Shown here: positions 29,008 to 45,372 of the stretch, in pieces
How the letters are laid out: the number at the start of each line of letters is the position of its first letter
How positions within the stretch are numbered: position 1 is the first letter of the stretch
Source: an uncultured Candidatus Saccharibacteria bacterium
Lineage (GTDB): Bacteria; Patescibacteriota; Doudnabacteria; UBA920
Direction of reading: 5' to 3'
Length of the DNA stretch: 45,372 bases
Assembly (NCBI GenBank): GCA_964473815.1
Contig: CAYYQK010000003.1
Location: 108,966-154,337, forward strand
Made by a program: the position numbers and the translations under genes
The notes under the pieces: model-generated
Databases searched by the model: none
What the model saw: only the letters and a program-made list of their open reading frames with translations
What the model was told of the DNA's origin: nothing

Positions 29008-29061
29008 GGTGGATGTAGTTCAGTGGTAGAGCGCCGCTCTGTGGCAGCGGATGTCGCGGGT
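29008..29061 (+). pseudogene. 5' part of an interrupted tRNA-His(GTG); putative attL
   Basis: G-1, acceptor 5' gtggatg, D arm, anticodon arm ccgct-CTGTGGC-agcgg and T-stem gcggg are intact, but the local 3' sequence cannot pair with the acceptor strand. Confidence 0.8.
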
Positions 29062-29151
29062 CCGAATCCGCTTGACCCAACACTTTCCTATATGGAAACA
29101 GGTCAGGCTTATGGGTTGCGAGCGATTTACAATTGAATAGTTCCTACTTAT

Positions 29152-29227
29152 GGTGGCTGTAGTGTAATGGCAACACGGCGCTCTGTGGCAGCGCAATCGC
29201 GGGTTCGATTTCCCGTCAGCCACCCCA
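29152..29227 (+). tRNA. tRNA-His, anticodon GTG (complete second copy)
   Basis: G-1, acceptor gtggctg/cagccac, discriminator C, CCA, loop CT-GTG-GC; 8-nt T loop. Confidence 0.88.
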
Positions 29228-29231
29228 GACC

Positions 29232-29257
29232 AAAAATCGCCTGAAAGGCGGTTTTTT
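29232..29257 (+). terminator. Terminator after tRNA-His
   Basis: aaaaatcgcc-tgaaa-ggcggttttt. Confidence 0.75.
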
Positions 29258-29271
29258 GTTAAGATACAATT

Positions 29272-29811
29272 ATGAAGAATATTACTTTTATTACTGGTAA
29301 CCAAAATAAGGCTGATTACTTAGCAAAGTATCTTGGGTTTCCTGTAAAGCATTTAAAGCTGGATTTAGAAGAATTACAATCGCTCGACTTAAAAGAAATC
29401 GTTGAGCATAAAGTTAAGCAGGCTTATGAGATTGTTAAAGAACCAGTGATTGTTGAAGATGTATCTTTGGAGTTTTCTGCGTTAGGTAGATTGCCAGGAA
29501 CTTTCATAAAATTTTTTGTCGATGAAGTTCCATTTGAGACAATCTGTTCAATGCTAAACGATAAGACCCGCAAAGCTACTGCTCGATGCGTTTTTGGTTA
29601 TTACGACGGTAACGATTTACAATTATTTGAAAGTAGTCTCGATGGTGAAATAGCCGAAAGCCCGTCAGGAGAAAATGGTTACGGCTGGGATAAAATTTTT
29701 ATTCCTCAGGGATATACTCAAACCCGAGCTTCTTTAAATGAAGAAGACGACCGTAAAACATACCTTAAGATAAAACCTTTTGCACAGCTAAAAAGTTTCT
29801 TGGAAAAATAA
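29272..29811 (+). CDS. Non-canonical purine NTP pyrophosphatase (Ham1/ITPase family)
   Basis: FITGN.NK, EELQ, VED..L....L..LPG..IK, GENGYGWD.IF.P. Confidence 0.9.
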   Translation: MKNITFITGNQNKADYLAKYLGFPVKHLKLDLEELQSLDLKEIVEHKVKQAYEIVKEPVIVEDVSLEFSALGRLPGTFIKFFVDEVPFETICSMLNDKTRKATARCVFGYYDGNDLQLFESSLDGEIAESPSGENGYGWDKIFIPQGYTQTRASLNEEDDRKTYLKIKPFAQLKSFLEK

Positions 29812-29845
29812 CGGGTGCAAACCCTTATTTTTATAAACCCCCTCT

Positions 29846-30577
29846 ATGCCAAAGTTAAAACCTACAAAGAAATCTAAACCCGAAGTTCACAAACCGAAAA
29901 GAATTACTATCGGCGAATTGGTGTATCGCCAAATGAGAGAAGACCACGCTAAGTTTGGGACTATGCTAAAAGCTCAGCAGCCATACTTTGAGGCCACTCA
30001 AGATGCTTTGGAAAAGGTAAGACTAATTGGCGAGGCGTTAAATAAACAACCTCAACTGTGGGATAGTTTTAGAAAAGCGGCTGAAATAGAGCGCCAACTT
30101 TCTGAACCTATGCGGAAATTAGCAGAGCCGATGCGTCAGTTAAATGAGCATTTAGAAAAACTTAAAGGTATAGGCACATTTAGATTATCACCCGCACTGA
30201 CAGAGATGATAAAAAATATCTCTAAATTACCTATTCCCGAGCTACTGAAGCCAGACCCTGATGAAATGGAAATAATTACTTATTCACCGCCTCCAATCAC
30301 TGTTGTAAAAAATCAACTTAATAACTTGGAAAGTAAATTAGAAGATTTTAGCGAACAAATTAAAAACACAGTAACAGAACAATTTGACAAACTGGCCGAG
30401 CGAAGTATAATAAATGCAGGATATAAAGAGCAGATAGTGTATTGTGGAGCTTGTAACGCTCCTATATGCAAAGTGAAAAACCCTGTTCTCTATACCTTAA
30501 GTATTCGTTCTCAAATTTGCCCTAAATGCAACAAAAGATTAGAGCAACCACGAGACTTTAAAATCAAGGATATTTAG
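29846..30577 (+). CDS. Hypothetical coiled-coil protein with a C-terminal CxxC...CxxC zinc finger
   Basis: CGAC and CPKC near the C-terminus. Confidence 0.7.
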   Translation: MPKLKPTKKSKPEVHKPKRITIGELVYRQMREDHAKFGTMLKAQQPYFEATQDALEKVRLIGEALNKQPQLWDSFRKAAEIERQLSEPMRKLAEPMRQLNEHLEKLKGIGTFRLSPALTEMIKNISKLPIPELLKPDPDEMEIITYSPPPITVVKNQLNNLESKLEDFSEQIKNTVTEQFDKLAERSIINAGYKEQIVYCGACNAPICKVKNPVLYTLSIRSQICPKCNKRLEQPRDFKIKDI

Positions 30578-30599
30578 TTTTGTAAAAATTTAACTGTCA

Positions 30600-30686
30600 T
30601 AAGGCCTACGAGGTCTTATGGCTTGGCTTTACGAAGTCCAATTAGGATAACTCTTACGAGGGTTGCCCTAATTGGGCTTTTTTTGT
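30600..30686 (+). ncRNA. Putative structured RNA/attenuator upstream of the rep gene
   Basis: Three hairpins each capped by TACG with G-U pairs; the last sits on a 9-bp perfect stem ccaattagg/cctaattgg followed by a T run. Confidence 0.45.
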
Positions 30687-30691
30687 TTTCT

Positions 30692-30874
30692 ATGCCACAA
30701 CCTGAGCAAAATAAACTCAACAAGAAACAAAAAGAAGCTATGGCCGATGCCTTAGCCAGTTTTTTCTTTGATTTTTGGCAAAACAGTTCTAACCGACGGG
30801 GTAATGAAGTAGCTACCTTAGAAGTAGGTTCATCTTGTAGAGGGGGTTTCCCTACACCTAAGGTGGCTTCTTAA
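30692..30874 (+). CDS. Small hypothetical protein upstream of rep (60 aa, start moved to ATG 30692)
   Basis: MPQPEQNKLNKKQKEAMADALASFFFDFW...; follows the hairpin cluster. Confidence 0.45.
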   Translation: MPQPEQNKLNKKQKEAMADALASFFFDFWQNSSNRRGNEVATLEVGSSCRGGFPTPKVAS

Positions 30875-30896
30875 TTATCTCGGTAAAATCCCCTCT

Positions 30897-32057
30897 ATGG
30901 ACACAATAAGAATTAAAATTCCTAACGATAAGTTTCTGATTAAAGACCCTGCTTTTTTCAACGAAGTAAAAAGTAGCCATTTTACTAATTCCCCGAGGTT
31001 CAAAGTAGAAAAAACCAACAACGGTTTTAGGAACGAACAAAGTAAAAAAGGTTTTTATGCTCCCAAATTTAAGCTCTTGGATATGCTATTTGGTATTGCA
31101 GATAACCACTTGGTGGTAGAATTTTCAGCACCAAAACTTCTATACGGAACTAACTTAAAAGAGGTAACAGAAGCGGATTTACCCGAAATCATTACTAAAC
31201 TAAAACTATATCTTAAATCCATAGGAATAGGGATATTTGAAAAGAACTTAGAAAACGCCACTGTAACTTTAGTCGCCTACGCAAAGAATATTCCCATTTC
31301 ACATTTAGGCAAAACAACCGAAGTTTTACGAGTGTTATTACCGTTTGATTATCGACCTCGCTCAGAATTTAGGTTTACTTACAAACAAGATAATAGCCAC
31401 GCAGAGCTAAAATACTTCAACAATAATACTCATCTCGTCCTATATGACAAGCTCGCTGAATTGCTGGGTAAGCCCATTACAGACGAAGAAAAAAAGATTG
31501 CTGACTACTACAAAAAAGGAGTTATACCGCCAGAATACGAAAGCATCATCACAGAAACTTTGCGCTTTGAGCTAACATTGCACACTAAATTCGCGGTTAA
31601 GCAAGTTATGGAAAAACATTACGGCCGCAAGAATGACTATACCCTGAGTGAGGTTTTTAAGGACAAAATTAGAGACGAGGCTTTAAAGGCGGAAGTTAGT
31701 AATATTTTCAACCACCCGCTCAAGGAAATCGTATTATTGAGGTCATACGACCAAACCACATTCAATAAAATCATCGACCAGTTATGCAAAAACTTTTCCC
31801 AGTCTGCCGAATTACGGACTATGTTTGACATTATTTATACTCGTGGAATTGGCGAACTGAGAAAAGAAGTAACCAGCAAATCTTCTAAACGCACTTGGTT
31901 CAGGAAGAAGCAAAAGATAAAACAACTACTCAAAGAAATTGACTTACCACCACCGCAAGGCAACATTGATAACGCAAAAGTTATTGAATATATACTGTCT
32001 CAATTTGGCATTGAACCCAATATACGAGAACCGAAACAATTAGAAATCTTTACCTAA
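30897..32057 (+). CDS. Putative replication initiator (Phage_CRI/Rep_trans-like, rolling-circle type)
   Basis: N-terminal DT, EFSAPKLLYG.N, LYDK..E and LRFE motifs recalled from that superfamily; not verified by search. Confidence 0.5.
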   Translation: MDTIRIKIPNDKFLIKDPAFFNEVKSSHFTNSPRFKVEKTNNGFRNEQSKKGFYAPKFKLLDMLFGIADNHLVVEFSAPKLLYGTNLKEVTEADLPEIITKLKLYLKSIGIGIFEKNLENATVTLVAYAKNIPISHLGKTTEVLRVLLPFDYRPRSEFRFTYKQDNSHAELKYFNNNTHLVLYDKLAELLGKPITDEEKKIADYYKKGVIPPEYESIITETLRFELTLHTKFAVKQVMEKHYGRKNDYTLSEVFKDKIRDEALKAEVSNIFNHPLKEIVLLRSYDQTTFNKIIDQLCKNFSQSAELRTMFDIIYTRGIGELRKEVTSKSSKRTWFRKKQKIKQLLKEIDLPPPQGNIDNAKVIEYILSQFGIEPNIREPKQLEIFT

Positions 32058-32226
32058 ATAAGTATGACACTACCACCCTCTACTATGTTACCCTCGCTCA
32101 CCATACAAAAACCTTCAAAAATCACTCCCAAGTATTACCACAATAAGTATGCCAAAAGTGGCACTATTAGATACGGCAATATGTATGACACAGGCTTTGA
32201 AAGACCGCCCTGAATATGTATGACAC
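32057..32226. repeat. Iteron-like direct repeats AATA(A/T)GTATG(A/C)CA
   Basis: Copies at about 32058, 32142, 32178 and 32213; the last two are identical 14-mers aatatgtatgacac. Confidence 0.7.
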
Positions 32227-32265
32227 CTTCCCACTCTAATTAACCCTTAAAAATCTCTAATCACT

Positions 32266-32655
32266 ATGGATACTAATAACCAAACCTACGAAGAAAAAAT
32301 CATATATTCTATCTACGAAGAAACAATCGTCGAAATCTTGGATACCCAATTTGAAACCGAGGCTACGCCACAGCTCATTGAAGATATTACCAACGAACTT
32401 TACGCTCAAGATTATATTTACCCCGCCCTCATAGACTGTGTTCACCACACTCTCGAATACAACGAGTTAATAGAGCGAAACAAAAAAGCCAAAGATAGCA
32501 AACCGCATTACATAGTTAAATATAAAAATCCCAACGCTTATGTTGTGGATTTTACGGAAATAGGTATTTTCTTAACAGAGCAGGATGCAGAAAAATATAT
32601 ACAATTTCAAGACAAAGACGAATTTACTGAATACCTTATTGAGAAAATACAGTAA
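32266..32655 (+). CDS. Acidic hypothetical protein
   Basis: 129-aa ORF ending at a terminator. Confidence 0.7.
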   Translation: MDTNNQTYEEKIIYSIYEETIVEILDTQFETEATPQLIEDITNELYAQDYIYPALIDCVHHTLEYNELIERNKKAKDSKPHYIVKYKNPNAYVVDFTEIGIFLTEQDAEKYIQFQDKDEFTEYLIEKIQ

Positions 32656-32661
32656 AATCTA

Positions 32662-32688
32662 AAAACCCCAGCAACGGTCTGGGGTTTT
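32662..32688. terminator. Bidirectional terminator
   Basis: aaaaccccag/ctggggtttt between convergent genes. Confidence 0.75.
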
Positions 32689-32705
32689 ATTTCAAAAGAG
32701 TAGCC

Positions 32706-32927
32706 TTAAAACTTAAACAAATCTTCGACAGATACGCCTAAAGCTTTGGCGATTTTCTCAACATTTTTAAGCCCGACATTCCTTTCCCCTCTTTCAACTC
32801 CACCCATATAAGTTCTGTCTAAACCAGCCTTATTCGCTAAAGCCATTTGAGAAATATCCCCTTTTTGTAAGCGTATATCTCTTACTCTTTTGCCAAATTT
32901 TATTAGTATTTCGTCGCTTTTATTCAC
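32706..32927 (-). CDS. XRE-family HTH regulator, restriction-modification controller (C protein)-like
   Basis: FGKRVR..R...SQ..LA..AGLDRTY...VERG.RN..L.N...IA.AL.V. Confidence 0.88.
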   Translation of the reverse strand: MNKSDEILIKFGKRVRDIRLQKGDISQMALANKAGLDRTYMGGVERGERNVGLKNVEKIAKALGVSVEDLFKF

Positions 32928-32949
32928 CCTTTAAGGGTAGGCCTTAGAC

Positions 32950-32974
32950 GACTATAAGGCGACGGACTATGAGT
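32950..32974 (-). promoter_or_regulatory. Tandem C-box-like operator
   Basis: Minus strand actcATAGTC-cgtcgcc-ttATAGTC, about 22 nt upstream of the GTG start of the C-like gene. Confidence 0.65.
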
Positions 32975-33053
32975 ATCCTGATATTTATGATATATTATTG
33001 GAAACTACTGATACTTATAAGTATTCAGTAAAATAAGATAATCATATAATTCA

Positions 33054-34028
33054 ATGAAAAAATGTCCCTTTTGTGCAGAGGAGATACAAGAAAGTGCAGT
33101 GGTGTGTAAGCACTGTAAAAGCCCTCTGACCGCAACCTCCCCTGCTGTTGCGACAACAACGCCAACCAAACAACCGACACAGGTAAACTGGAAAAAGATT
33201 GGAAATATTTTTGGCACAATCTTTTTGATAGGTCTTGTCTTGAAGTTTTGGTATATTGGCATACCCGCAGTTGTTGCGTGGTATTTGTTTAAGAAGCGTA
33301 AGAACAAGTTTAGCCAACGCACCAACATAATTGCCACTGCGGTAGTAGCGGTAATCTTTATTGGGGCTGGCATAGCCAACGCTCACGGAAACAGGAAGCC
33401 CGAATTGACCATTACCGAACCGCAAGCCAATGCAAGTGTGCAGGCAAAGAGCATAACAATTAAGGGAAAGGTAAATCCTGCCAGCTCAACTGTGGTGGTT
33501 AATAACACACCTGCACAAGTAGACAGTAGTGGTAACTTCACCTATGACGCACCGCTTGAAAACGAAGCCAACACCATTACGGTTATTGCCACCAACGCTG
33601 GAAAAACTACACCACAAACTTTAACCGTCAGTCGTATTTTTACCCCAGAGGAAATGGCAGAGCGTGAACGGTTAAAGGCAGAAGCGGAAGCAAAGAAGCA
33701 GGCACAATTGGAAGCCCAACAAAAAGCCCAAGCGGAAGCTGACGCAAAGGCAAAGGCTGACCAAGCCGCTTACGAGCGAAGCAAAGCAGGTCAGTTATGT
33801 AAGGCTCACCCTGATTGGGATAAGGAAACCTGCCAAAGAGTTGCAGACCGCAACTACTGGGTAGGTATGACATATGAACAACTTGTCGCTTCATACGGTA
33901 GTAAACCTAACAGTGCCAACCCTTCAAACTATGGTGGTAAAACACAGTGGCAGTGGTGCTGGCACAGTTACAGTCCGTCTTGCTTCTACGACAACAATGA
34001 TGACGGTATAATTGACAGTTACAACTAA
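33054..34028 (+). CDS. Membrane-anchored surface protein: zinc ribbon, TMs, Ig-like domain, Ala/Lys coiled coil, small C-terminal domain
   Basis: CPFC...CKHC, three hydrophobic segments, P.LTITEP...G.F...PL....NTITV.ATN..G, AEAKKQAQ repeats. Confidence 0.8.
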   Translation: MKKCPFCAEEIQESAVVCKHCKSPLTATSPAVATTTPTKQPTQVNWKKIGNIFGTIFLIGLVLKFWYIGIPAVVAWYLFKKRKNKFSQRTNIIATAVVAVIFIGAGIANAHGNRKPELTITEPQANASVQAKSITIKGKVNPASSTVVVNNTPAQVDSSGNFTYDAPLENEANTITVIATNAGKTTPQTLTVSRIFTPEEMAERERLKAEAEAKKQAQLEAQQKAQAEADAKAKADQAAYERSKAGQLCKAHPDWDKETCQRVADRNYWVGMTYEQLVASYGSKPNSANPSNYGGKTQWQWCWHSYSPSCFYDNNDDGIIDSYN

Positions 34029-34032
34029 CCCT

Positions 34033-34323
34033 ATGGCTGAAAAAGAACTAAACCCGCAGGCAGTAAAAGACTGCCCATATTGTGCGGAACATATACAAGC
34101 AGAAGCGATAGTATGTAAGCACTGTGGCTATAATCTCACTACTGGCAAGCCTGTCGAATGGTTGAAGCCCAGCCCACCTACTTCGCCACCCACTCAAAAT
34201 CAAGTTACAGCAAAAAGCGGTATAGGAGACGGGGTTCGGTTAGGATGCGGGATGTTTATTGTCTTACCTATTCTGATAATTATCGGTATAATCATATTTA
34301 TTGCTATTGTCGGTAGCTTCTAA
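34033..34323 (+). CDS. Small zinc-ribbon membrane protein
   Basis: CPYCAE.IQ..A.VCKHCG plus C-terminal TM; start moved to ATG 34033. Confidence 0.75.
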   Translation: MAEKELNPQAVKDCPYCAEHIQAEAIVCKHCGYNLTTGKPVEWLKPSPPTSPPTQNQVTAKSGIGDGVRLGCGMFIVLPILIIIGIIIFIAIVGSF

Positions 34324-34346
34324 TAAAAACAAAAAATAACTTTTTG

Positions 34347-35369
34347 TTATCGCAACAGGAAGTTATTTTTAATTGTATTTTCTAAGGAGTAATTATTAGA
34401 GTGCTTTAGCATACCCAAATATGACTGTACGGTTTGGTAGAAACTATCAAATTCAAGCTCGCCTGCCGTTAATAAATCATCCTTATAAGATAATTTCTTT
34501 AACATCCTGTTTTTGGTCTTTCGTCTTATTCCAATATATTTAGGCAAAATAATGTATCCTAAGAAGTCTATCCCCTGTGTATACTTACGCAGTTCAATTT
34601 TATTAGGATGTAAATAAACCCCTAACCTACCTGATACAAAGACTGAAACCCATTTCAGTATTTCTTCCAAGTAATTTCTATCTTTATGGACAATTGCAAA
34701 ATCATCAGCATAACGAAAGTAATACTTTACCCCAAGTTTATGTTTTACAAACTGGTCTAATTCATTCAGGAAAATGTTGGCAAAGATTTGTGATGTCAGA
34801 TTACCAATAGGAATGCCTTTGCCCTGTGAAAAGCTCCCGAGTATTTCTCGTATCAACCATAGAAATCGCTTATCCTTTATTCTCTTTTCGATAATTTGCA
34901 GAAGCAAGTTATGAGGAACACTGTGAAAAAATTGTTTTATATCACACTTCAAAACATATGTTTGCCGAGAGCCATTCTGACTTTCTTCCCTTAATGCTTT
35001 TCTGAGGTTTTCGACGGCGCGATGCGAACCCTTATCAAGCCTTGATGAGTAAGAATGAAAGATAAAAGTAGGGTCAAAAATTTCATACAATTTAGCAAAG
35101 ACCAAATGGTGAACCAGCCTATCTCTTACAGTAGCTTTGCTTATAATTCTGTGTTTTGGGTCATAGATGTGAAAGGTTGTATACCGCCCGTGTCTGTATG
35201 TTTGATTGACGAGCTGATGATGCAAGTTGAACATATTGTCTTCCAAATATCGTTCAAAGTGCATTACATCACTTTTCGAAATCTTACCGCGCTTAAACTC
35301 ATCCCAAGAAACCAGTATGTTTTCCAAACTAACTAAGAAAGGATAATTAACACTATGAACAACTTGCAT
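34347..35369 (-). CDS. DGR reverse transcriptase
   Basis: DPK.R.I.KA.VRDR.VHH, KCDIKQFF.S, GIPIGNLTSQIFAN, RYADDF, IDFLGY; no internal stops. Confidence 0.96.
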   Translation of the reverse strand: MQVVHSVNYPFLVSLENILVSWDEFKRGKISKSDVMHFERYLEDNMFNLHHQLVNQTYRHGRYTTFHIYDPKHRIISKATVRDRLVHHLVFAKLYEIFDPTFIFHSYSSRLDKGSHRAVENLRKALREESQNGSRQTYVLKCDIKQFFHSVPHNLLLQIIEKRIKDKRFLWLIREILGSFSQGKGIPIGNLTSQIFANIFLNELDQFVKHKLGVKYYFRYADDFAIVHKDRNYLEEILKWVSVFVSGRLGVYLHPNKIELRKYTQGIDFLGYIILPKYIGIRRKTKNRMLKKLSYKDDLLTAGELEFDSFYQTVQSYLGMLKHSNNYSLENTIKNNFLLR

Positions 35370-35720
35370 AATAAAGATTATTTAGACGAAATCCCGATAA
35401 TTAGAAAAGTATACGAACTTTACAAACTATACTACGGTTATTTAGAATTGTTCCCGAAAAAAGACAAATATGCTTTAGGCAGTAAATGTGAATTATACAT
35501 TATCGCCGTCCTCGAGCTCTTGCTATCCGCAGGTAGTCTTCCCAAAGAAAGCAAGGGTGAAGTAATACAACAAGCCAGTGTTAAGTTTGATACGCTAAAA
35601 GTTTTGTTGCGGATGGCCAGAGAGCTTGGGTTATTAGATAACAAGAAGTATATTGCGCTACAAACCTGTATCCAAGAAATAGGCCGTATGCTCGGTGGAT
35701 GGCAACGCTCCTTAAAGTAA
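35355..35720 (+). CDS. avd: DGR accessory variability determinant (Avd, four-helix bundle)
   Basis: FPKKDKYALG, LK.LLR.A.EL, KY.....I.EIGRMLGGW. Confidence 0.9.
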   Translation: MNNLHNKDYLDEIPIIRKVYELYKLYYGYLELFPKKDKYALGSKCELYIIAVLELLLSAGSLPKESKGEVIQQASVKFDTLKVLLRMARELGLLDNKKYIALQTCIQEIGRMLGGWQRSLK

Positions 35721-35751
35721 CAGGAGTTCCTCAATCAAGAGGAACTCCTGT
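35720..35751. other. Perfect 13-bp hairpin just 3' of the TR (minus-strand sense)
   Basis: acaggagttcctc-aatcaa-gaggaactcctgt. Confidence 0.85.
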
Positions 35752-35763
35752 AACCAGACACAA

Positions 35764-35884
35764 CCCGAGAACGACGAGACCACCAGCGTAGTTGTCGTTG
35801 GCATTGTCGAGGTTGATCCTGTTGTCGAAGTTGAGGTTGTCGTCGTTGGCGTTGAAGTAGAGCGAGTTGTCAGACGACTGCCAC
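35764..35884 (-). repeat. DGR template repeat (TR)
   Basis: 121 nt; in the VR frame it has 10 AAY codons and 31 adenines, none at third codon positions. Confidence 0.97.
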
Positions 35885-36141
35885 CACTCAACGAAAATTG
35901 CCGTTTCCCATCCATACCACCAGAACATTAGCCTTACCGCATTTCTACTTATACTCTAATTGTTCTTGTATTTAATCCGCCTATAACAGGCTTAAGAAAC
36001 AGCAAGTAGTGTCTGATGTTTTGGTATACTCTCTTGCAATCCACTCGAACTGCAAAACTCTGATACTTAGAAAACTCAGGATTTCGGTAACGACAATCCG
36101 TAGACGGCCGTGTATTAACCTACTTTCAGAGATATTATACC

Positions 36142-36184
36142 AAAAAGAAAAGCGGGGGCAATGATATTTCACATTGCGCCCCGT
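36142..36184 (-). terminator. Hairpin/terminator downstream of target 1
   Basis: cgggggcaatg...cattgcgccccg with a minus-strand T run. Confidence 0.7.
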
Positions 36185-36267
36185 ACGATTGATAGATTTC
36201 GGAGACCAAAGTCCAAGAGCCAAAGCCCTGAACCAAAAACAAGTTTCCAAAATCCGAAGACCTTTCA

Positions 36268-37260
36268 CTACCCGAGAACGACGAGACCACCAGCGCAGTA
36301 GTCGTAGGCATCGTCGAGGACGATCCCGTAGTCGAAGAGGAGGTTGCCGTCGCGGGCGCCGAAGTAGAGCGAGCAGTCAGACGACTGCCACTGCATTACG
36401 GCAAGGTCGAGCAAGGGCGTTTTGCTGTCCCGAGCTAATACATCTGGAAAAGCCACCATCGCTCCCGCAGCGTCGAAACCGCCAGCAAGCAGGAACTTGT
36501 CAGGCAGGCTCGCCATCTGTTCACGGTCGGCGTGGACGCTGAAACCTTGCAGGCAATTCGGAAAGTAAATCCCGACCACGTTGCCTTGCTTCATCGCTTC
36601 GACGAGCCGTTCGTGACGAGAGCCTTCCACTATAGTGGTCTGACCAGCGAGAGTTCCTTTGCGGTAGTTGTAAAAACTGCGCTTGGGAAACTCTGCCTTG
36701 TAGCTTCGCTCAACGGCGGGCAGGAACACTTCGTCCAATACCCGACCATAGTCGTCAACCTGTGTCTGCGGCAGATAGAACGGCAAATGAACGCCGTTGG
36801 TGATGAGTTGGGTCTTTTCGTCAACCCGCAAACCATCCAAGATTGCCTCGGCACGGTTCTCAAACTCGTCCGCCGAAATCGCCTCTTTCAGGACAAAGCA
36901 ATCAACAATGCGAGCAAGCCGCTCGGCGTAGTTAAGCTTCGTGTGTTTCAGAAAGTAGTTGCGACTTGCGTCCGTGACTGAAGCGGTAAGTGTGCGAGGC
37001 GGGATGCGACGACCGTGCTTGTCGAACCACTTAATAATCGCATCGGTCAAACTAACTTCTTTCTCGCCACGCAGGATAGCTTCAACCGCTTCCATTCCGC
37101 CGAGAATGTTCACAAGGGCTTCGTTCTGCCCAAGGTTCATCTCGCCGTATTTGGGTGTTGCAAGCTGCTTCCCCGCCAGCAGTCCGTCAATGCCTTTACG
37201 CCCATTGAGCAAATCAGCAAGCGTAATAACTTCGTTAATTTTCAAATCTCCGTGTTTCAC
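36268..37260 (-). CDS. DGR target protein 1 (330 aa from GTG 37260), C-terminal variable region
   Basis: Ends in VR1; SD aaggagga 7 nt before the GTG; paralog of target 2. Confidence 0.92.
   Translation of the reverse strand: MKHGDLKINEVITLADLLNGRKGIDGLLAGKQLATPKYGEMNLGQNEALVNILGGMEAVEAILRGEKEVSLTDAIIKWFDKHGRRIPPRTLTASVTDASRNYFLKHTKLNYAERLARIVDCFVLKEAISADEFENRAEAILDGLRVDEKTQLITNGVHLPFYLPQTQVDDYGRVLDEVFLPAVERSYKAEFPKRSFYNYRKGTLAGQTTIVEGSRHERLVEAMKQGNVVGIYFPNCLQGFSVHADREQMASLPDKFLLAGGFDAAGAMVAFPDVLARDSKTPLLDLAVMQWQSSDCSLYFGARDGNLLFDYGIVLDDAYDYCAGGLVVLG
36271..36391 (-). repeat. Variable repeat VR1
   Basis: 17 mismatches to TR, all at TR adenines. Confidence 0.97.
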
Positions 37261-37350
37261 TGTAAAATCCTCCTTCAGGCTATTTGCCCGAATTTTCTGC
37301 AAATTCCACTACCCGTGGATTGGGAACTTTCCGTGATGAAAAGATGTATA

Positions 37351-37379
37351 AATATAGCATATTTTTAGCTTTTAGTCAA
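37351..37379 (-). promoter_or_regulatory. Promoter of target 1
   Basis: TTGACT-N17-TATATT with TG extension. Confidence 0.7.
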
Positions 37380-37410
37380 CCCTTCGACCAAAAGCTATTT
37401 TTGACTTAAT

Positions 37411-37452
37411 AAACAAAAAAACGGGGCGATGAAATTGCACATCGCACCCGTT
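37411..37452 (-). terminator. Hairpin/terminator downstream of target 2
   Basis: aacggggcgatg...catcgcacccgtt with a minus-strand T run; homologous to the target 1 hairpin. Confidence 0.7.
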
Positions 37453-37527
37453 GTAGAAAATTCGAGACCAAAGACCAGAACCCAAAAGCCGAGACAAGCC
37501 CAAGCTTCCGAACTCCAAAATCCGACA

Positions 37528-38463
37528 CTACCCGAGAACGACGAGACCACCAGCGCAGAAGACGCTGGCACCGTCGAGGCCGATCCCGCTGCCGAAGCTG
37601 AGGTAGTCGCCGCTGGCGAAGAAGTAGAGCGAGCGGCCAGACGACTGCCACTGCATTGCGGCAAGGTCGAGAAGCGGAGTAGAGCCGTCCCGAGCAAGAA
37701 CGTCGGGATAAGCAATCATTGCAGCTGCGGCATCAAAGCCACCTGCCAGCAAAAACTGCTCTGGCAAACTATCCATCTGCTCACGGTCGGCATCCACCGA
37801 ATACCCTTGCAGGCAATTCGGGAAGTAAATGCCAACCACTGTGGCTTTCTTCATTGCCTCGACCAACCGCTCGTGGCGAGAACCAGCGACGATTGTCGTT
37901 TGTTCCGCCAAAGAACCTTTACGGTAGTTATTGAATGGTCGGTTACCGCCGAAATGCTCTGCATAGGAGTTATTCACTCCCGTCAGGAACACCTCGTCCA
38001 GAACCTGACCGTAGTCTTCGACATCCATCTGCGGAATGACGAAAGGCAGATAAGTGCCTTTGAGCAGATTGCTCACCCTATCGTCTTCACGGATGCCATC
38101 GATAATTGCTTCGCTCCTCGTCTCAAAGTCCGCCGCCGAAATGTTGTAAAGATACTTTGGCGAGTTGAGATAAGTTTGCAACCGAGCCAGTCGCTGACCG
38201 TAGTCGAGCGTTGGCTGATTGAAGCGATAGTCACGGTCGGGTTTCGTGGTATTAGCCTTCAACCCCCGAGGGCGAATGCGAACACCGTTACGGTTGAACA
38301 GGGACACGTTCTGCGGTCTTGCCTTGAGCAGCAGTTTACTGTCAACGACTTCCGTCGCCAATGTTCCTGCGGCTATGGCTCTGGCGTTGTTTTCGCCAAG
38401 ATTTTTGACCAAAGCGTTAAGGTCGCCTGTTTTCCAGTCCTTAATAAAAAATTCCGATTTCAT
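37528..38463 (-). CDS. DGR target protein 2 (311 aa), C-terminal variable region
   Basis: Ends in VR2; SD aaggagga; paralog of target 1. Confidence 0.93.
   Translation of the reverse strand: MKSEFFIKDWKTGDLNALVKNLGENNARAIAAGTLATEVVDSKLLLKARPQNVSLFNRNGVRIRPRGLKANTTKPDRDYRFNQPTLDYGQRLARLQTYLNSPKYLYNISAADFETRSEAIIDGIREDDRVSNLLKGTYLPFVIPQMDVEDYGQVLDEVFLTGVNNSYAEHFGGNRPFNNYRKGSLAEQTTIVAGSRHERLVEAMKKATVVGIYFPNCLQGYSVDADREQMDSLPEQFLLAGGFDAAAAMIAYPDVLARDGSTPLLDLAAMQWQSSGRSLYFFASGDYLSFGSGIGLDGASVFCAGGLVVLG
37531..37651 (-). repeat. Variable repeat VR2
   Basis: 21 mismatches to TR, all at TR adenines. Confidence 0.97.
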
Positions 38464-38548
38464 TGTCTTCCTCCTTGGGCTTCATTGCCCGAATGGTGAT
38501 TTGCCTCTACCCCGAGGCAGGGACTGCTTGGTATCAAGCAGATGTATA

Positions 38549-38577
38549 AATATAACATATTTGAGCGCATTAGTCAA
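38549..38577 (-). promoter_or_regulatory. Promoter of target 2
   Basis: TTGACT-N17-TATATT with TG extension; same architecture as the target 1 promoter. Confidence 0.7.
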
Positions 38578-38639
38578 TAATTTGACTGTCCCCTAACTTT
38601 CCTATATAATCTTATATAGCTAACTATATACGATTTAAT

Positions 38640-39692
38640 ATGACTAATTACGAAAAGCGACTACTAACTATACCCGCCTCTGTTGCCACCAAAATTGGCC
38701 AAATTGACGAGTTAAAAGGTCAATGGGTGTCTGGGGCGCAATTAAACCCACAGGTGCTGGGACGGCTTAAAAAGTCTGTTCTTGTTACATCCACAGGAGC
38801 TTCTACTCGCATAGAGGGAGCTATATTGTCGGATGAAGATGTAGAAAAATTCGTGAAAGGGATTGGTTTGCAAAAATTCTCCGATAGAGATAAAGGCGAA
38901 GTAAAAGGTTACTACGAATTACTGAACACAGTTTTTGATAACTGGCGGGCTATACGATTAAGCGAAAGCACTGTAAAACACTTCCACAAAGAACTGCTGA
39001 AATATGTAGGCAAAGACGAGAGGCATCGCGGTGAATACAAGATTGCCGACAACACTGTAGAAATGAAAGATGCATCTGGGAAAACAATTGCTGTGATGTT
39101 CAAACCAACACCAGCATACTTAACACCCAAAGAGATGCAAGAACTGGTTGAGTGGACGCAAACAGCAACAAAGGAAAAGAAATACCACCCGCTACTGATA
39201 ATTGCAAACTTCATAGTTGAGTTCTTAAACATCCACCCTTTCACAGACGGGAACGGCAGACTTAGCCGAATTTTAACTAACCTCTTATTGTTAAAAGAGG
39301 GCTATTTATATGCGCCTTATGTGTCGCACGAAAAGATTATTGAAGATAACAAACCAGACTACTATTTAGCATTACGAAAAAGTCAAAAGACCATTAAGAC
39401 TGCAAAGGAGGACATAATCCCGTGGCTTGAATTTTTCTTAGACACATTTTTACAACAATCTCGTATGGCCGTTGAACTCCTATCTGCTGAGAATGTAGAA
39501 AAGTTATTCTCCCCTACCCAGCTTAAAGTGTGGGAGTATTTACAAAAAGTAGATGAGGCAACTCCTATGGAAATTAGCGAACAAATGAGTGTTCCTCGCC
39601 CAACTGTCAATCAAGTGTTAGACAAACTGCTCAAATTAAAACGCATTGAACGGCTTGGTGCGGGTAGAGCAACAAGATACAAAAAACTATAA
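38640..39692 (+). CDS. Fic family protein with a C-terminal winged-helix
   Basis: HPFTDGNGRLSR catalytic motif; N-terminal STRIEG inhibitory-type motif. Confidence 0.93.
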   Translation: MTNYEKRLLTIPASVATKIGQIDELKGQWVSGAQLNPQVLGRLKKSVLVTSTGASTRIEGAILSDEDVEKFVKGIGLQKFSDRDKGEVKGYYELLNTVFDNWRAIRLSESTVKHFHKELLKYVGKDERHRGEYKIADNTVEMKDASGKTIAVMFKPTPAYLTPKEMQELVEWTQTATKEKKYHPLLIIANFIVEFLNIHPFTDGNGRLSRILTNLLLLKEGYLYAPYVSHEKIIEDNKPDYYLALRKSQKTIKTAKEDIIPWLEFFLDTFLQQSRMAVELLSAENVEKLFSPTQLKVWEYLQKVDEATPMEISEQMSVPRPTVNQVLDKLLKLKRIERLGAGRATRYKKL

Positions 39693-39697
39693 AAGTT

Positions 39698-41329
39698 ATG
39701 GTAAAAACTCCCTCTCAAAAACCAAAGCTTGGTGTTGGTTATATTCGGGAAAGCACCGAGGAACAGGACAAGGGCTTTTCCCCTGCCAACCAAAAACGCA
39801 CTATAGAAGATTACGCGGCTAAGAACAATATCAAAATTACGGATTGGTATAAAGACTTAGTAACTGGAACGAAAGCCAGCAAACGCGATGACTTTCAACG
39901 AATGATTACCGATGCAATGGAAAAGAAGTTTGAAGTTATTTTAGTATTCCATACTTCGCGCTTTGCCCGTAATGTATCAGAAGCCCGACAATACAAAGAC
40001 CTACTTCGTAAGAAACAAGGTATTGATGTAATTTTCGTAACTCAACACTTTGGCGATTATGATAGCCCAAGTGGCTTTTTGAACGAAGGCGTAAACGAGT
40101 TGTTTGATGAATACTACTCTAAGCAACTCAGTTTTTGGGTGCGTTCAACACTAATGGAAAAGCGGAAACAAGGAAAACAAATTGGAAGCGTTCCATTGGG
40201 TTATTACAAAAAGAAGCTGGGTTTTGATAAGGATAAAGGTAGAGCAATTTATGCCAAAGAATGGTTAGTGCATCCACAGGAAAGTAAATTGGTGAAAAAG
40301 ATATTTACACTCTACGCTACTGGCAAATATTCTTATGCTGATGTAGCCGCAGAGCTAAATAAAATGGGAGCTAAGACAAAAAGCGGTTATCCTTTCACTT
40401 ATAGTTCAATCAAAGATATTTTGGACAACCAAACTTATCTTGGCAAAGTATTTTCTAAACGGAGAGGTTATCCAACCCACACAGGTGAACATCCAGCTAT
40501 TATTACACAAAAGCTTTTTGATAAGGTGCAAGAAGTTATTGCGCAACGACGAAATACACAGGGTAGACCCGTTGCTCAACATAGGTTTTATCTCTTGCAG
40601 GATTTAATCTACTGCTGGAATTGCCGTAAATATCTAAAGGGTAAGGAAGATAATCCCAATCCTCGCGCTCAGATGTTACCAAAAATGTATTGTGAAACTC
40701 ACCAATATGTAGACGCCAAAGGTGTTAGACACGAAAAGCTAACTTACCACTGCAAGATTGCGAGGGAAACCAAATCGTGCAAACAGCCCATTGTTGCGGC
40801 AGATATAATTGATAAGCAAGTTATCGCTTTAATGGAAGGGTTTAAGCTTCCTAATGATGTGATTGAGATGACAGTCAATAGATTAAAGGTCTTATTCAAG
40901 CACGCTCAGCGTTCAGTAAAAGATTTAGATACTGTTGCAAAATTAGAAGCTAAAAAGAAAAAACTAAACTGGATGTTCGCCAATACCGAAGAACTAACCG
41001 AGGCTGACTATATAAAACAGTTGCGGGAGCTTAACAACGAGCTTCAAAAATATGATGATTTGGGTTTAGTAAAAAATAACTCTGTAACCAAAGAAACCGA
41101 ATACATAAAAAAGACCGAGAAGTTCTTAAAGAATTTCAAACAATTCTGGCGTTCTGACATTGGTGACGAAGAACGCAGGGCTTGGATACAAATGACAATT
41201 AAGCGGGTATGGGTTAAAAATCAGAAAGTTATAGCCATAGAACCGCACGATGATTTTAAGCCTTTATTCGCAGCGCATAGAAAAGTCTTGGTTCAAGCCC
41301 CGTCATCCACCCCACAAAGAACGAACTGA
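39698..41329 (+). CDS. Large serine recombinase A
   Basis: GYIRESTEEQ catalytic motif, SRFARN, recombinase domain, zinc ribbon, coiled coil. Confidence 0.93.
   Translation: MVKTPSQKPKLGVGYIRESTEEQDKGFSPANQKRTIEDYAAKNNIKITDWYKDLVTGTKASKRDDFQRMITDAMEKKFEVILVFHTSRFARNVSEARQYKDLLRKKQGIDVIFVTQHFGDYDSPSGFLNEGVNELFDEYYSKQLSFWVRSTLMEKRKQGKQIGSVPLGYYKKKLGFDKDKGRAIYAKEWLVHPQESKLVKKIFTLYATGKYSYADVAAELNKMGAKTKSGYPFTYSSIKDILDNQTYLGKVFSKRRGYPTHTGEHPAIITQKLFDKVQEVIAQRRNTQGRPVAQHRFYLLQDLIYCWNCRKYLKGKEDNPNPRAQMLPKMYCETHQYVDAKGVRHEKLTYHCKIARETKSCKQPIVAADIIDKQVIALMEGFKLPNDVIEMTVNRLKVLFKHAQRSVKDLDTVAKLEAKKKKLNWMFANTEELTEADYIKQLRELNNELQKYDDLGLVKNNSVTKETEYIKKTEKFLKNFKQFWRSDIGDEERRAWIQMTIKRVWVKNQKVIAIEPHDDFKPLFAAHRKVLVQAPSSTPQRTN
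41290..41314 (+). other. Displaced 3' end of tRNA-His (T arm, acceptor strand, CCA); putative attR of element A and junction of element B
   Basis: gg-TTCAAGC-cccgt-catccac-c-cca; catccac pairs 7/7 with gtggatg at 29009-29015. Confidence 0.85.
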
Positions 41330-42901
41330 TGTTAATTCATCGGTTCGTTCTTTGTTTATAGGGTGTTTCGTTGGTTCTGATTTTTGATATTGCACTTCGA
41401 GCTTTTTATAACCGCTCAGAACTGGCTCAAACCACTTATGCATTTCAATATTCAATGCTCCATCTTTAAGTGTGAATGCCGAACCCATTGCAGAAAATAT
41501 CTCTTTTTTAGTATTGATACTACCACTCGTGAACTTTTCTTTAGCGTGAGTTGCAAAATCAAACACCTTCTCAGTTAGCTCCAACCAGTTTACAGCACGA
41601 ACCTCTGTTTCTTCTCGCAGCTGCTTTAACTGTACTATTTTAGATTGCAATATTTTCTTTTCTGATAAATACTCATCATCAGTAATAAGATCCCGATATC
41701 GCATTTTAGTCAGATTATCTAATTGATTTTGTAACTCCAGCAAGGTGCTGCTCTGTGATTGATGCTTATCACTACGAATAGCGATCTCCTGATCATTCCA
41801 GTTATTCAGAATTTCTACTGCCCAGTCACGAAATTCAGGAAGTATCTGGAGTTGTGACAACTTTACCGTTATCTGATTATCTAATTCAGATTCTGCTATT
41901 ACCTTCTTTTGAGAACAACTCACATACTTCTTTTTACCCGTACAGTGATAATAATCATATCGCTTGTTTTCACCAGTCGATTTGATCTTTTTAAATTTAG
42001 TTTCAGCAGTTACATGGGCGCCGCATTCTCCACATCTAATAATCCCGGAGAAAGGATGTTCATGACGTTTAGGACGTGGTTTACCTTGTTTTTGTCCTAA
42101 TAATTCTTGCACACGTTCATATTGCTGAATGGTTACCATCGGCTCATGAATACCCTGATAAGTATGGCCATTCCATTCGATTATACCAGCGTAGAACTTG
42201 CTATAGAACATACTATATAACCCACTCAAAGATAAAGGCTTTCCACCTCTTAGCTTTCGTTGTATTGTACGGAAGCCCCAGTCATCATTCACAATTTTTA
42301 AAATCTGTCGTACAGAGTAGTTGCCAGTCAGCATTAGCATCCACATCTGCTTTACCATATCAAAGCGTTCAGGATCCTTTACAATCGTCTTTTCCAACTT
42401 GTCATTTAAGTAACCCAAACGAGCAAGGTTAGGTTGCCATCCCTTTTGTAATTTGCTCTCCATTCCACGTAAAGTATTCTTCCTAAGGTCTAAAATAAAC
42501 TGGTTGGCCATACCACTTTCAAGACTGAGCAATAATACACTATCTTCTGGAAGATAAGTACGATCATAAGTCTGAATAGCTTTAATTACACCATTCTGCA
42601 ACATCCATTGGATAGTACCACTATCAACCGGATTGCGTGAAAGACGATTAATTTGCCAGCATAAAATTCCATCAGCTTTACCCTGCTGAATTGCGTTTAA
42701 CATCTCTCCAAATAAAGGACGATCAGATGGCTTTTTGGCTGATTTGGATTCTTTATAAATCCCAACAACTTCTAGCTGTTGATCAGTAGCCAAATTCGTT
42801 AAACGATTTACTTGATCTTCAATGGATTGGATTTGGCGATCTTCGGATTCACTACTCTTTCTAGCGTATAGGAAATATCGCAGAGGTGGTTTTATGGTCA
42901 T
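41303..42901 (-). CDS. Large serine recombinase B
   Basis: YARKSSE...Q..SIEDQ, RL.RN..D, P.GY, C.ECG zinc ribbon; stop codon lies in the tRNA 3' fragment. Confidence 0.93.
   Translation of the reverse strand: MTIKPPLRYFLYARKSSESEDRQIQSIEDQVNRLTNLATDQQLEVVGIYKESKSAKKPSDRPLFGEMLNAIQQGKADGILCWQINRLSRNPVDSGTIQWMLQNGVIKAIQTYDRTYLPEDSVLLLSLESGMANQFILDLRKNTLRGMESKLQKGWQPNLARLGYLNDKLEKTIVKDPERFDMVKQMWMLMLTGNYSVRQILKIVNDDWGFRTIQRKLRGGKPLSLSGLYSMFYSKFYAGIIEWNGHTYQGIHEPMVTIQQYERVQELLGQKQGKPRPKRHEHPFSGIIRCGECGAHVTAETKFKKIKSTGENKRYDYYHCTGKKKYVSCSQKKVIAESELDNQITVKLSQLQILPEFRDWAVEILNNWNDQEIAIRSDKHQSQSSTLLELQNQLDNLTKMRYRDLITDDEYLSEKKILQSKIVQLKQLREETEVRAVNWLELTEKVFDFATHAKEKFTSGSINTKKEIFSAMGSAFTLKDGALNIEMHKWFEPVLSGYKKLEVQYQKSEPTKHPINKERTDELTSVRSLWGG
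41315..41354 (+). terminator. 17-bp hairpin directly after the tRNA CCA
   Basis: caaagaacgaactgatg-ttaatt-catcggttcgttctttg (one G-U pair), followed by ttta. Confidence 0.8.
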
Positions 42902-45264: not shown

Positions 45265-45372
45265 AAATCTACTTTCTCCTGACCAGTAACCACCTCGTTA
45301 ACCGGCCAGGAGATAATAGGTTTAGAGGTGGTATAAAAAACAAAAAACCAGCTTACGCTGGTTAACAAAATG

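Follow-up and report, generated by a model that had tools for sequence, protein, structure and literature searches.

A serine integrase of Patescibacteria that carries its attachment site within its own gene and is predicted to exchange its C-terminal tail on integration

Our analysis of a 45,372-nucleotide stretch of contig CAYYQK010000003.1 (the window, whose positions we use throughout) indicates that a large serine integrase, recombinase A, spans the attachment site (attP) of the integrative element that encodes it, a 12,231 bp element at 29070-41300 that sits in the T-arm of a Patescibacteria tRNA-His gene. The integrated form ends in VQA followed by PSSTPQRTN, VQA being element-encoded and the 9 residues from codon 535 onward host-encoded, and the excised form, of 557 aa, is predicted to end in HRKVLVQA followed by RLTQHFPIWKQVRLMGCERFTIE and the stop TAG at 29138-29140. 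Integration would swap a 23-codon tail, which is moved 12 kb off to the left junction of the element (attL), for 9 codons from the tRNA remnant at the right junction (attR). That the two states encode different isoforms, as the original prediction had it, is well supported at the level of sequence, with a tail motif in 14 of 16 elements and open reading frames (ORFs) in attP form in public assemblies. Moreover, we lean, with some reserve, to the view that the tail works in the excised-state enzyme, so that integration would make the behavior of the integrase dependent on its state.

The original prediction placed the attachment site inside recombinase A, and it does lie there: the P arm of attP makes up codons 528-534, and the same in-frame layout is found in 52 of the 52 loci with a detectable P arm. 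In the window the ORF ends in HRKVLVQAPSSTPQRTN. The integrated tail had been described as encoded by the 3' fragment of the tRNA, which is right for PSSTPQRTN and wrong for VQA, which belongs to the element; for the excised tail the frame and the stop at 29138-29140, just before the element's tRNA, had been given correctly, and two residues had not (RI for QA). The excised tail opens with the codons of the P' arm (RLTQHFP) and goes on with a conserved peptide (IWKQVRLMGCE...). Homologues are 348-700 aa long, the integrated tails ending at whatever stop the host flank has, and these tails are host-encoded, unconstrained and highly variable in length. The seeming conservation of Q-x-P-x-x-T-P among database proteins has two sources, the P arm for Q-x and, next to it, the conserved 3' end of the tRNA for P-x-x-T-P.

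Where the swap takes place can be read from the geometry of the sites. The C-runs at the two junctions (2 at attL and 4 at attR), together with the 5-bp T-stem, leave a single possible 2-nt core. The extended arms of attP form an imperfect inverted repeat around this non-palindromic CC, with matches at 19 of 24 positions; the arms of the empty host site (attB) match at 9 of 24, and attP and attB have the core alone in common. The resulting sites are attB ...GAAT[CC]CGTC... and attP ...CAAGC[CC]GCTTG..., and the predicted crossover is the CC at 29068-69 and 41299-41300, with a predicted circle junction ...AAAGTCTTGGTTCAAGCCCGCTTGACCCAACACTTTCC... and a predicted empty site ...GTCGCGGGTCCGAATCCCGTCATCCACCCCA.... 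Relatives, denoted here by locus numbers, bear on this directly. The P'-arm motif is also present at attL of L008, L017, L027, L011, L093, L104, L161 and L163; attL of L008, L027, L017 and L163 carries the host's own canonical T-loop up to CC and then the conserved P' arm; and attP as read directly in L163 and L166 is GGGTCAGCC-CC-CCTTGAGC.

An earlier geometry put the junction at GGT in the 5' strand of the T-stem (29059-61 and 41290-92), which would give a tail VRIRLTQ..., or else at a GGT in the element's own tRNA (tail VRFPVSHPRPKIA). ARAGORN does accept as a tRNA-His the product of the join at GGT, whose T-loop is a canonical TTCAAGC. However, there is no dyad around GGT, and the counterpart of the apparent loop sequence TCAAG in relatives, which after GG read GGTCAAG, GCTCAAG or GGCCAG, is no T-loop and hence must be element DNA. 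Moreover, attL in L008, L027 and L163 holds the host T-loop up to CC, and the direct attP in L163 and L166 leaves CAGCC with the recombinase. The second GGT leads to a mismatch in the acceptor stem and likewise has no dyad. The GGT geometry, from which a circle reading ...CTTGGTCCGAATCC... would be expected, is refuted by the attP junctions in relatives; the dyad, the relatives' attL and the direct attP all place the crossover 9 nt further on, at CC, and we regard either GGT geometry as hardly credible.

Relatives were collected from genome and metagenome collections and by exact-protein look-ups, and the 52 loci, some of them redundant, are all those with a detectable P arm. In every one the P arm stands in frame at the 3' end of the recombinase ORF, with the core after 2 nt, and in every one it ends on a codon boundary of the recombinase frame, so that the layout is no chance. 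The core is CC in 47 of the 52, with the tRNA-His 3' remnant next to it and the recombinase parallel to the tRNA. It is GG in four (L001, L002, L019, L026), where the recombinase is antiparallel to the tRNA and the ORF runs into the reverse complement of the tRNA-His T-arm, as expected of an inverted element, and CT in the remaining one. A near-palindromic attP that flips orientation along with its central dinucleotide pins the crossover to that dinucleotide, as the mechanics of serine integrases predict, and in this family the central dinucleotide appears to set the polarity of integration. In L161 (9137-9150; a 91% relative) and L101 the core in attR is CT, and the attL core of L161 is CC; since attL x attR recombination should not proceed between central dinucleotides that differ, such copies may be trapped in the integrated state.

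The attP junction itself was found in three public assemblies, two for a 73%-identical relative (L163 and L166) and one for a 51%-identical subfamily member (L158). L163 (ENA ERZ28614697; integrase 73% identical to A) has attL at 1-107 and then a scaffold gap, past which a contig opens with 60 nt from the 3' end of the recombinase gene, running straight into the P' arm and the left end of the element. We looked up eight predicted excised-form proteins among 15 billion, and the L163 prediction (558 aa) was present letter for letter, as P0132, on L166 (ERZ15185093 NODE_96), from an assembly named differently from that of L163. NODE_96 reads attL, element, recombinase, CC, P' arm and tail, and ends within a second copy of the element's left end. 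The L163 and L166 junctions are circle or tandem junctions, and their sequence is precisely the one predicted. In L158 (Logan SRR30758783), on a contig without tRNA, the ORF continues through the P' arm (...PLATHFPTTIWKQITIR and stop), and its tail agrees with the one rebuilt for its relative L018.

Is the tail conserved as protein? We rebuilt attP for 13 elements, namely the window's own (WIN), L008, L011, L013, L014, L017, L018, L020, L021, L026, L027, L093 and L104, and added L161 as a fourteenth, L163, read directly, and L158, in its natural attP form, for a set of 16. The recombinase frame is open across attP in all 16, and runs on past it for 17-40 codons, with a median of 22, whereas the two remaining frames close after a median of 1 and of 11.5 codons. 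In 14 of the 16 the tail carries the motif [IL]W[KN]x[IV][KR][LI][ML], often with xC[ED] next, which starts 1, 4, 5 or 6 whole codons past the P'-arm-encoded xLTx[HD]F. Pairwise differences within the motif at codon positions 1, 2 and 3 are.39,.23 and.54, the third position being the most variable, which argues for coding constraint. In the P'-arm codons the corresponding values are.39,.28 and.35, a pattern that fits a DNA-level constraint on the putative binding site. The three closest elements agree right to the stop (window FPIWKQVRLMGCERFTIE, L161 FPMWKQVKLMGCSQFTIK, L163 FPKWKEIKLIGCEQFTIK). Across the set the tail C-termini are varied (FTIE, FTIK, KLIV, RIM, EYEQ, NKLK), with no common tag-like ending.

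By its fold, its domains, the architecture of its att sites and its polarity rule, recombinase A is a regular large serine recombinase. Pfam assigns it a Resolvase domain (PF00239, E=3.5e-26, residues 13-160) and a Recombinase domain (PF07508, E=3.3e-20), and its PHROG match is integrase (2.5e-87). Across 41 homologues Y15, R17, E18 and S19 of the resolvase-type catalytic domain are invariant, as are C306, C352 and C361 of the zinc-ribbon domain, with C309 almost so. AlphaFold2, given an alignment of 51 sequences, produced a model with a mean predicted local distance difference test score (pLDDT) of 81, in which long helices at residues 386-485 are flanked by beta hairpins, that is, a coiled coil embedded in the zinc ribbon; the prediction from a single sequence (pLDDT 43.5) was uninformative. 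The best Foldseek matches of the model are the full-length SPbeta, Bxb1, LI and phiC31 integrases (E about 1e-20 to 1e-13). The last confident secondary structure ends near residue 528, so that the catalytic, DNA-binding and coiled-coil parts all lie upstream of the swap and survive integration.

How might such an exchange of tails matter? In the mechanism that we favor, the tail would be a working part of the excised-state enzyme, as the protein-level constraint suggests, and attP x attB integration would be the task of the full-length form. The integrated element would make a catalytically complete but tail-less integrase that differs in activity, in partner binding or in control, such as control of the coiled coil and zinc domain close by, which govern directionality. 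Put differently, if the tail is under selection in the excised form, then the integrated state makes a different enzyme. The zinc-ribbon domain, out of which the coiled coil rises, passes directly from its last strands into the tail. In phiC31 the directionality factor binds the zinc-ribbon domain and is thought to redirect the coiled coil (PMC5814800), and fusing phiC31 integrase to its directionality factor changes the preferred reaction (PMC5737554), while in Mx8 too a changed C-terminus alters the integrase (PMC6070905); given these precedents and the position of the tail beside the zinc ribbon, a tail-dependent change of directionality or activity is mechanistically reasonable. A directionality or stability switch through the tail swap is plausible. 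Since the tails have no common C-terminal ending, a stability switch of the mycobacteriophage type is the less attractive form of it. In a stronger version the tail would be a built-in directionality controller, the full-length form being able only to integrate and the tail-less form carrying out attL x attR excision without a separate factor; this we consider unlikely. If the L163 and L166 junctions do stem from excision, they would at least imply that the tail-less form is competent for it.

A number of observations weigh against the mechanism that we favor. The AlphaFold2 model gives the tail a pLDDT of about 30 and no confident structure, though from an alignment nearly without tail sequences. 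The tails of L008, L017 and L104 stop straight after the W..[IV][KR][LI] motif and that of L014 is divergent, leaving about 8 residues common to most. For the window's own element neither attP nor an empty attB was seen, and we infer its geometry because relatives at 51-91% protein identity show it; the circle junction, whose sequencing the original prediction had proposed as a check, falls inside the ORF in L163 and L166, and none was found for the window's element. The L163 and L166 junctions could also come from tandem copies or autonomously replicating circles rather than fresh excision, and a weak match to a rolling-circle replication protein within the element means that circles might persist on their own. 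Finally, serine integrases are one-directional without a directionality factor (PMC3783163), so a switch is not strictly needed.

Several of these points would equally suit a by-product, in which attP merely happens to overlap the gene at its 3' end, whether because the P arm derives from that end or through genome compaction, and in which the tail does a constant job or is mildly useful and its loss on integration is unimportant. The folded domains of the model stop before the swap, three elements have much shorter tails, and the integrases are one-directional anyway. However, the motif shows coding-type substitutions and whole-codon insertions and deletions among integrases that are just 40-60% identical, which points to selection on the full-length form, so that the integrated form would be without something selected, and the layout is kept in every family member examined; on balance we find a mere by-product rather unlikely, though to be taken seriously. 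Alternatively, the sequence past the P' arm might be conserved as DNA, as an accessory binding site or as a promoter for the tRNA-His or the left-end genes, with the open frame incidental. Constraint at the DNA level is certain for the P'-arm part of the tail, and the final codons in the window, L161 and L163, FTI(E/K) and stop, overlap a TACAAT box about 20 nt upstream of the element tRNA. Yet the W-K-x-I-K-L motif lies at a variable distance from the P' arm that is always a multiple of 3 nt, and from 50 to 670 nt, depending on the element, from the element's tRNA; the third codon position varies most; and the frame is open in 16 of 16 elements while the other frames close early. Conservation as DNA alone thus seems very improbable, and a tail that functions in the excised-state protein is the reading that we retain.

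Integration also has consequences for the host tRNA. The window belongs to a cellular chromosome, not a phage, its flanks encoding a sigma factor, a DEAD-box helicase, an ABC transporter, a histidine kinase and DUF5667/DUF5666 proteins, and every close homologue of recombinase A that carries an organism name is labelled Patescibacteria or candidate phyla radiation (CPR). The broken tRNA-His lacks its 3' end (...CATCCACCCCA), which is found at the end of the recombinase A ORF, where it codes for (P)SSTP of the integrated isoform and complements the 5' acceptor strand GGTGGATG at 29008 onward. Joining 29008-29067 to 41299 onward yields a 75-nt tRNA-His with a perfect acceptor stem (ARAGORN on the rebuilt attB). 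At the attL hybrid (29008-29082) ARAGORN calls no tRNA in a scan of the window, and, as read from the sequence, TTGACCC on the 3' side of the hybrid cannot pair with GGTGGAT on the 5' side. The host tRNA-His is destroyed because attP and attB have just the 2-bp core in common. The element's own tRNA-His sits 64 nt inside attL, and L008, L027, L011, L163 and L166 have an equivalent tRNA-His just within attL; we expect the element-borne tRNA-His to replace the host gene broken on integration. The hairpin past the tRNA remnant is likely the host tRNA-His terminator, and the integrated-state stop (TGA, 41327-29) falls within it.

Some further features of these tRNAs may be recorded. The 3' half of the element tRNA-His, ...TTTCCCGTCAGCCACCCCA, resembles the B' arm of the attB sites of the family, so that this gene, which is very near attP in the circle, could be a decoy or secondary site. 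The T-loop of the rebuilt host tRNA-His (29060-29069 joined to 41301-41305), TCCGAAT, has C at the near-universal U55; the host-derived part of L002 and the complete tRNA-His genes of L010 and L011 also have C there (T-loop TCCGAAT or TCCGATT). In the subfamily of L018 and L158 the P' arm duplicates the 3' end of the tRNA (TTAGCCACCCA). An intact tRNA-His is therefore restored at attL, and on neither locus does ARAGORN report a further tRNA-His belonging to the element. Such a tRNA-like P' arm looks like the ancestral state.

Table 1. Positions of the attachment sites, tRNA parts, recombinases and retroelement components in the window.
Feature	Position	Strand	Basis
Host tRNA-His(GTG) 5' part, the B arm of attL (acceptor stem to T-loop TCCGAAT)	29008..29067	+	ARAGORN on rebuilt tRNA
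Central (crossover) dinucleotide CC at attL, predicted	29068..29069	+	C-run fit, dyad center
P' arm of attP (GCTTGACCCAACACTTTCC), coding for (R)LTQHFP of the excised form	29070..29088	+	Reverse-complement partner of P arm
Rest of the predicted excised-state tail (IWKQVRLMGCERFTIE) and stop TAG (29138-40)	29089..29140	+	In frame with recombinase across attP
Element's own intact tRNA-His(GTG)	29153..29227	+	ARAGORN; sole tRNA-His called in window
Reverse transcriptase	34347-35369	-	
Avd protein	35355-35720	+	
Template repeat of the retroelement	35752-35884		
Two variable copies, 82-83% identical	36259-36391, 37519-37651		
Paralogous ORFs with the variable copies in their 3' ends	36268-37302, 37528-38463	-	
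Recombinase A, integrated-state form, 543 aa	39698..41329	+	Pfam, PHROG, AlphaFold2/Foldseek
P arm of attP (GAAAAGTCTTGGTTCAAGC), codons R528-A534 (RKVLVQA) of recombinase A	41280..41298	+	Dyad and family survey
Central dinucleotide CC at attR, predicted; swap starts in codon 535	41299..41300	+	Dyad; junctions in L163, L166
Host tRNA-His 3' remnant (CGTCATCCACCCCA: T-stem end, acceptor strand, discriminator, CCA)	41301..41314	+	Pairs with 5' acceptor strand
Recombinase B, second large serine recombinase, convergent with A	41303..42901	-	Pfam; context, outside the system of A
Hairpin, then T-run, past the tRNA remnant	41316..41353	+	Read from sequence; also kept in L161

Recombinase B is 20% identical to recombinase A. 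Its conserved end, ...LEVQYQKSEP, lies at about 41375-80 and is followed by a diverged read-through over the tRNA-His terminator into the tRNA remnant; in L161 the stretch from A through the tRNA remnant to B is 76% identical in nucleotides to that of the window. Recombinase B probably belongs to a second, tandem element in this tRNA, whose own att site would lie at the 3' end of B; the far end of this putative element is beyond the window, which ends at 45372. As for the other cargo of the element, a diversity-generating retroelement occupies 34347-38463, and L163 likewise has a reverse transcriptase and a bAvd protein. The gene directly upstream of recombinase A, at 38640-39692, codes for a Fic/DOC protein that has a winged-helix domain at its C-terminus and might be a regulator, a toxin or an accessory recombination factor; L161, L163 and L164 keep this pairing of Fic/winged-helix protein and recombinase. 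The 386-aa product of 30897-32057 shows borderline similarity to rolling-circle replication proteins of filamentous phages (PF05144, E=1.8e-4), and the match is fainter in L161. This similarity suggests that the excised circle may replicate on its own.

A profile of the tail region run against 5.8 billion proteins returned 11 fragments, in integrated forms only; in viral contigs a degenerate attP pattern gave 0 matches and a recombinase profile two distant matches, and the family is essentially absent from the viral collection scanned. A regular expression for more attL sites found 0, most of the remaining loci having elements longer than the 10-kb flank or contigs that end first. Among more distant homologues (L028-L044, Solirubrobacterales, 33-35% identity) the ORF enters an antisense tRNA-Asp in half of the 16 loci checked, with a tail reading ...GSDGTRTRDL.... 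The habit of placing an att site at the 3' end of the ORF and targeting the T-arm of a tRNA thus seems to be shared by a clade that is much wider.

Directionality is a central problem of serine integrases, in biology and in genome engineering alike, and it is normally set by a separate directionality factor that is hard to find; we know of no sequence signature common to these factors, and several ORFs of the element are unassigned, so that the lack of an evident factor gene, noted in the original prediction, says little on whether one is present. The present family is predicted to alter its own C-terminus at each integration and excision, and the altered part is conserved. If the built-in controller were real, the location of the element itself would set which reaction takes place, making a one-gene, two-state recombination switch. 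The predicted sites also provide a defined attP/attB pair, with its crossover base pair, for Patescibacteria, for which, to our knowledge, almost no genetic tools exist.

While recombinase A resembles several known systems in the layout of its gene, namely those of Mx8, the SSV type and BPs, it is a member of none of them, all being built on tyrosine recombinases. The attB sites of Mx8 lie in tRNA genes and its swap replaces about 112 residues, and the truncation in mycobacteriophage BPs removes a degradation tag from the repressor. For Mx8 IntP and IntX we draw on a review that cites Tojo 1996 and Magrini 1999. According to that review, attP is within int and integration creates a recombinant gene with a new 3' end, whose protein is active but altered (PMC6070905). 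Recombinase A is similar in having attP in its own gene (codon 535 of 557) and in acquiring a new 3' end on integration, but it is of the serine type, with a 2-bp core, dyad att sites and a 23-residue tail outside the fold. The 'suicidal' integrases of the SSV type (SSV1, pTN3, pT26-2) also have the site in their own gene, in an all-in-one module of integrase, site and directionality control, and are split by integration into two inactive halves; according to the review they are confined to archaea (PMC8371274). Recombinase A too is altered by integration at a site within its gene, but it is bacterial, it keeps all its domains intact and it exchanges the tail alone. In the integration-dependent immunity of BPs and its relatives attP is within a gene whose product is truncated by integration and changed in its properties (PMC4557955). 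The general principle of a gene product changed by integration is the same; however, the gene in BPs is that of the repressor and its integrase a tyrosine integrase, whereas here attP is in the integrase gene and the tails have no common tag-like ending.

The loss and replacement of the tRNA resemble the tRNA-dependent lysogeny of Fionnbharth and other actinobacteriophages (PMC10865867), in which attB lies partly within a host tRNA that the short core cannot rebuild and the element brings its own tRNA, as with the tRNA-His(GTG) at 29153-29227 and its equivalents in relatives. Those systems are true phages with a tyrosine integrase and a core of about 10 bp, whose lysogens need the phage tRNA to survive, unlike the small element described here, which has a serine integrase and a 2-bp core and among whose ORFs no virion genes were recognized with Pfam and PHROG. 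In the phiC31, Bxb1, SPbeta and LI/A118 systems attP is not part of the integrase ORF, and a separate directionality factor is required for excision. A full-text search of the papers available to us turned up no serine integrase with attP inside its own coding sequence, which is absence of evidence rather than proof. With phiC31, Bxb1, SPbeta and LI/A118 recombinase A shares its domains and fold, dyad att sites, a 2-bp core that sets polarity and little identity between attP and attB. Thus, if our analysis is correct, it extends both the attachment site inside an integrase gene, from tyrosine to serine recombinases, and the arrangement of tRNA-dependent lysogeny, to serine integrases.

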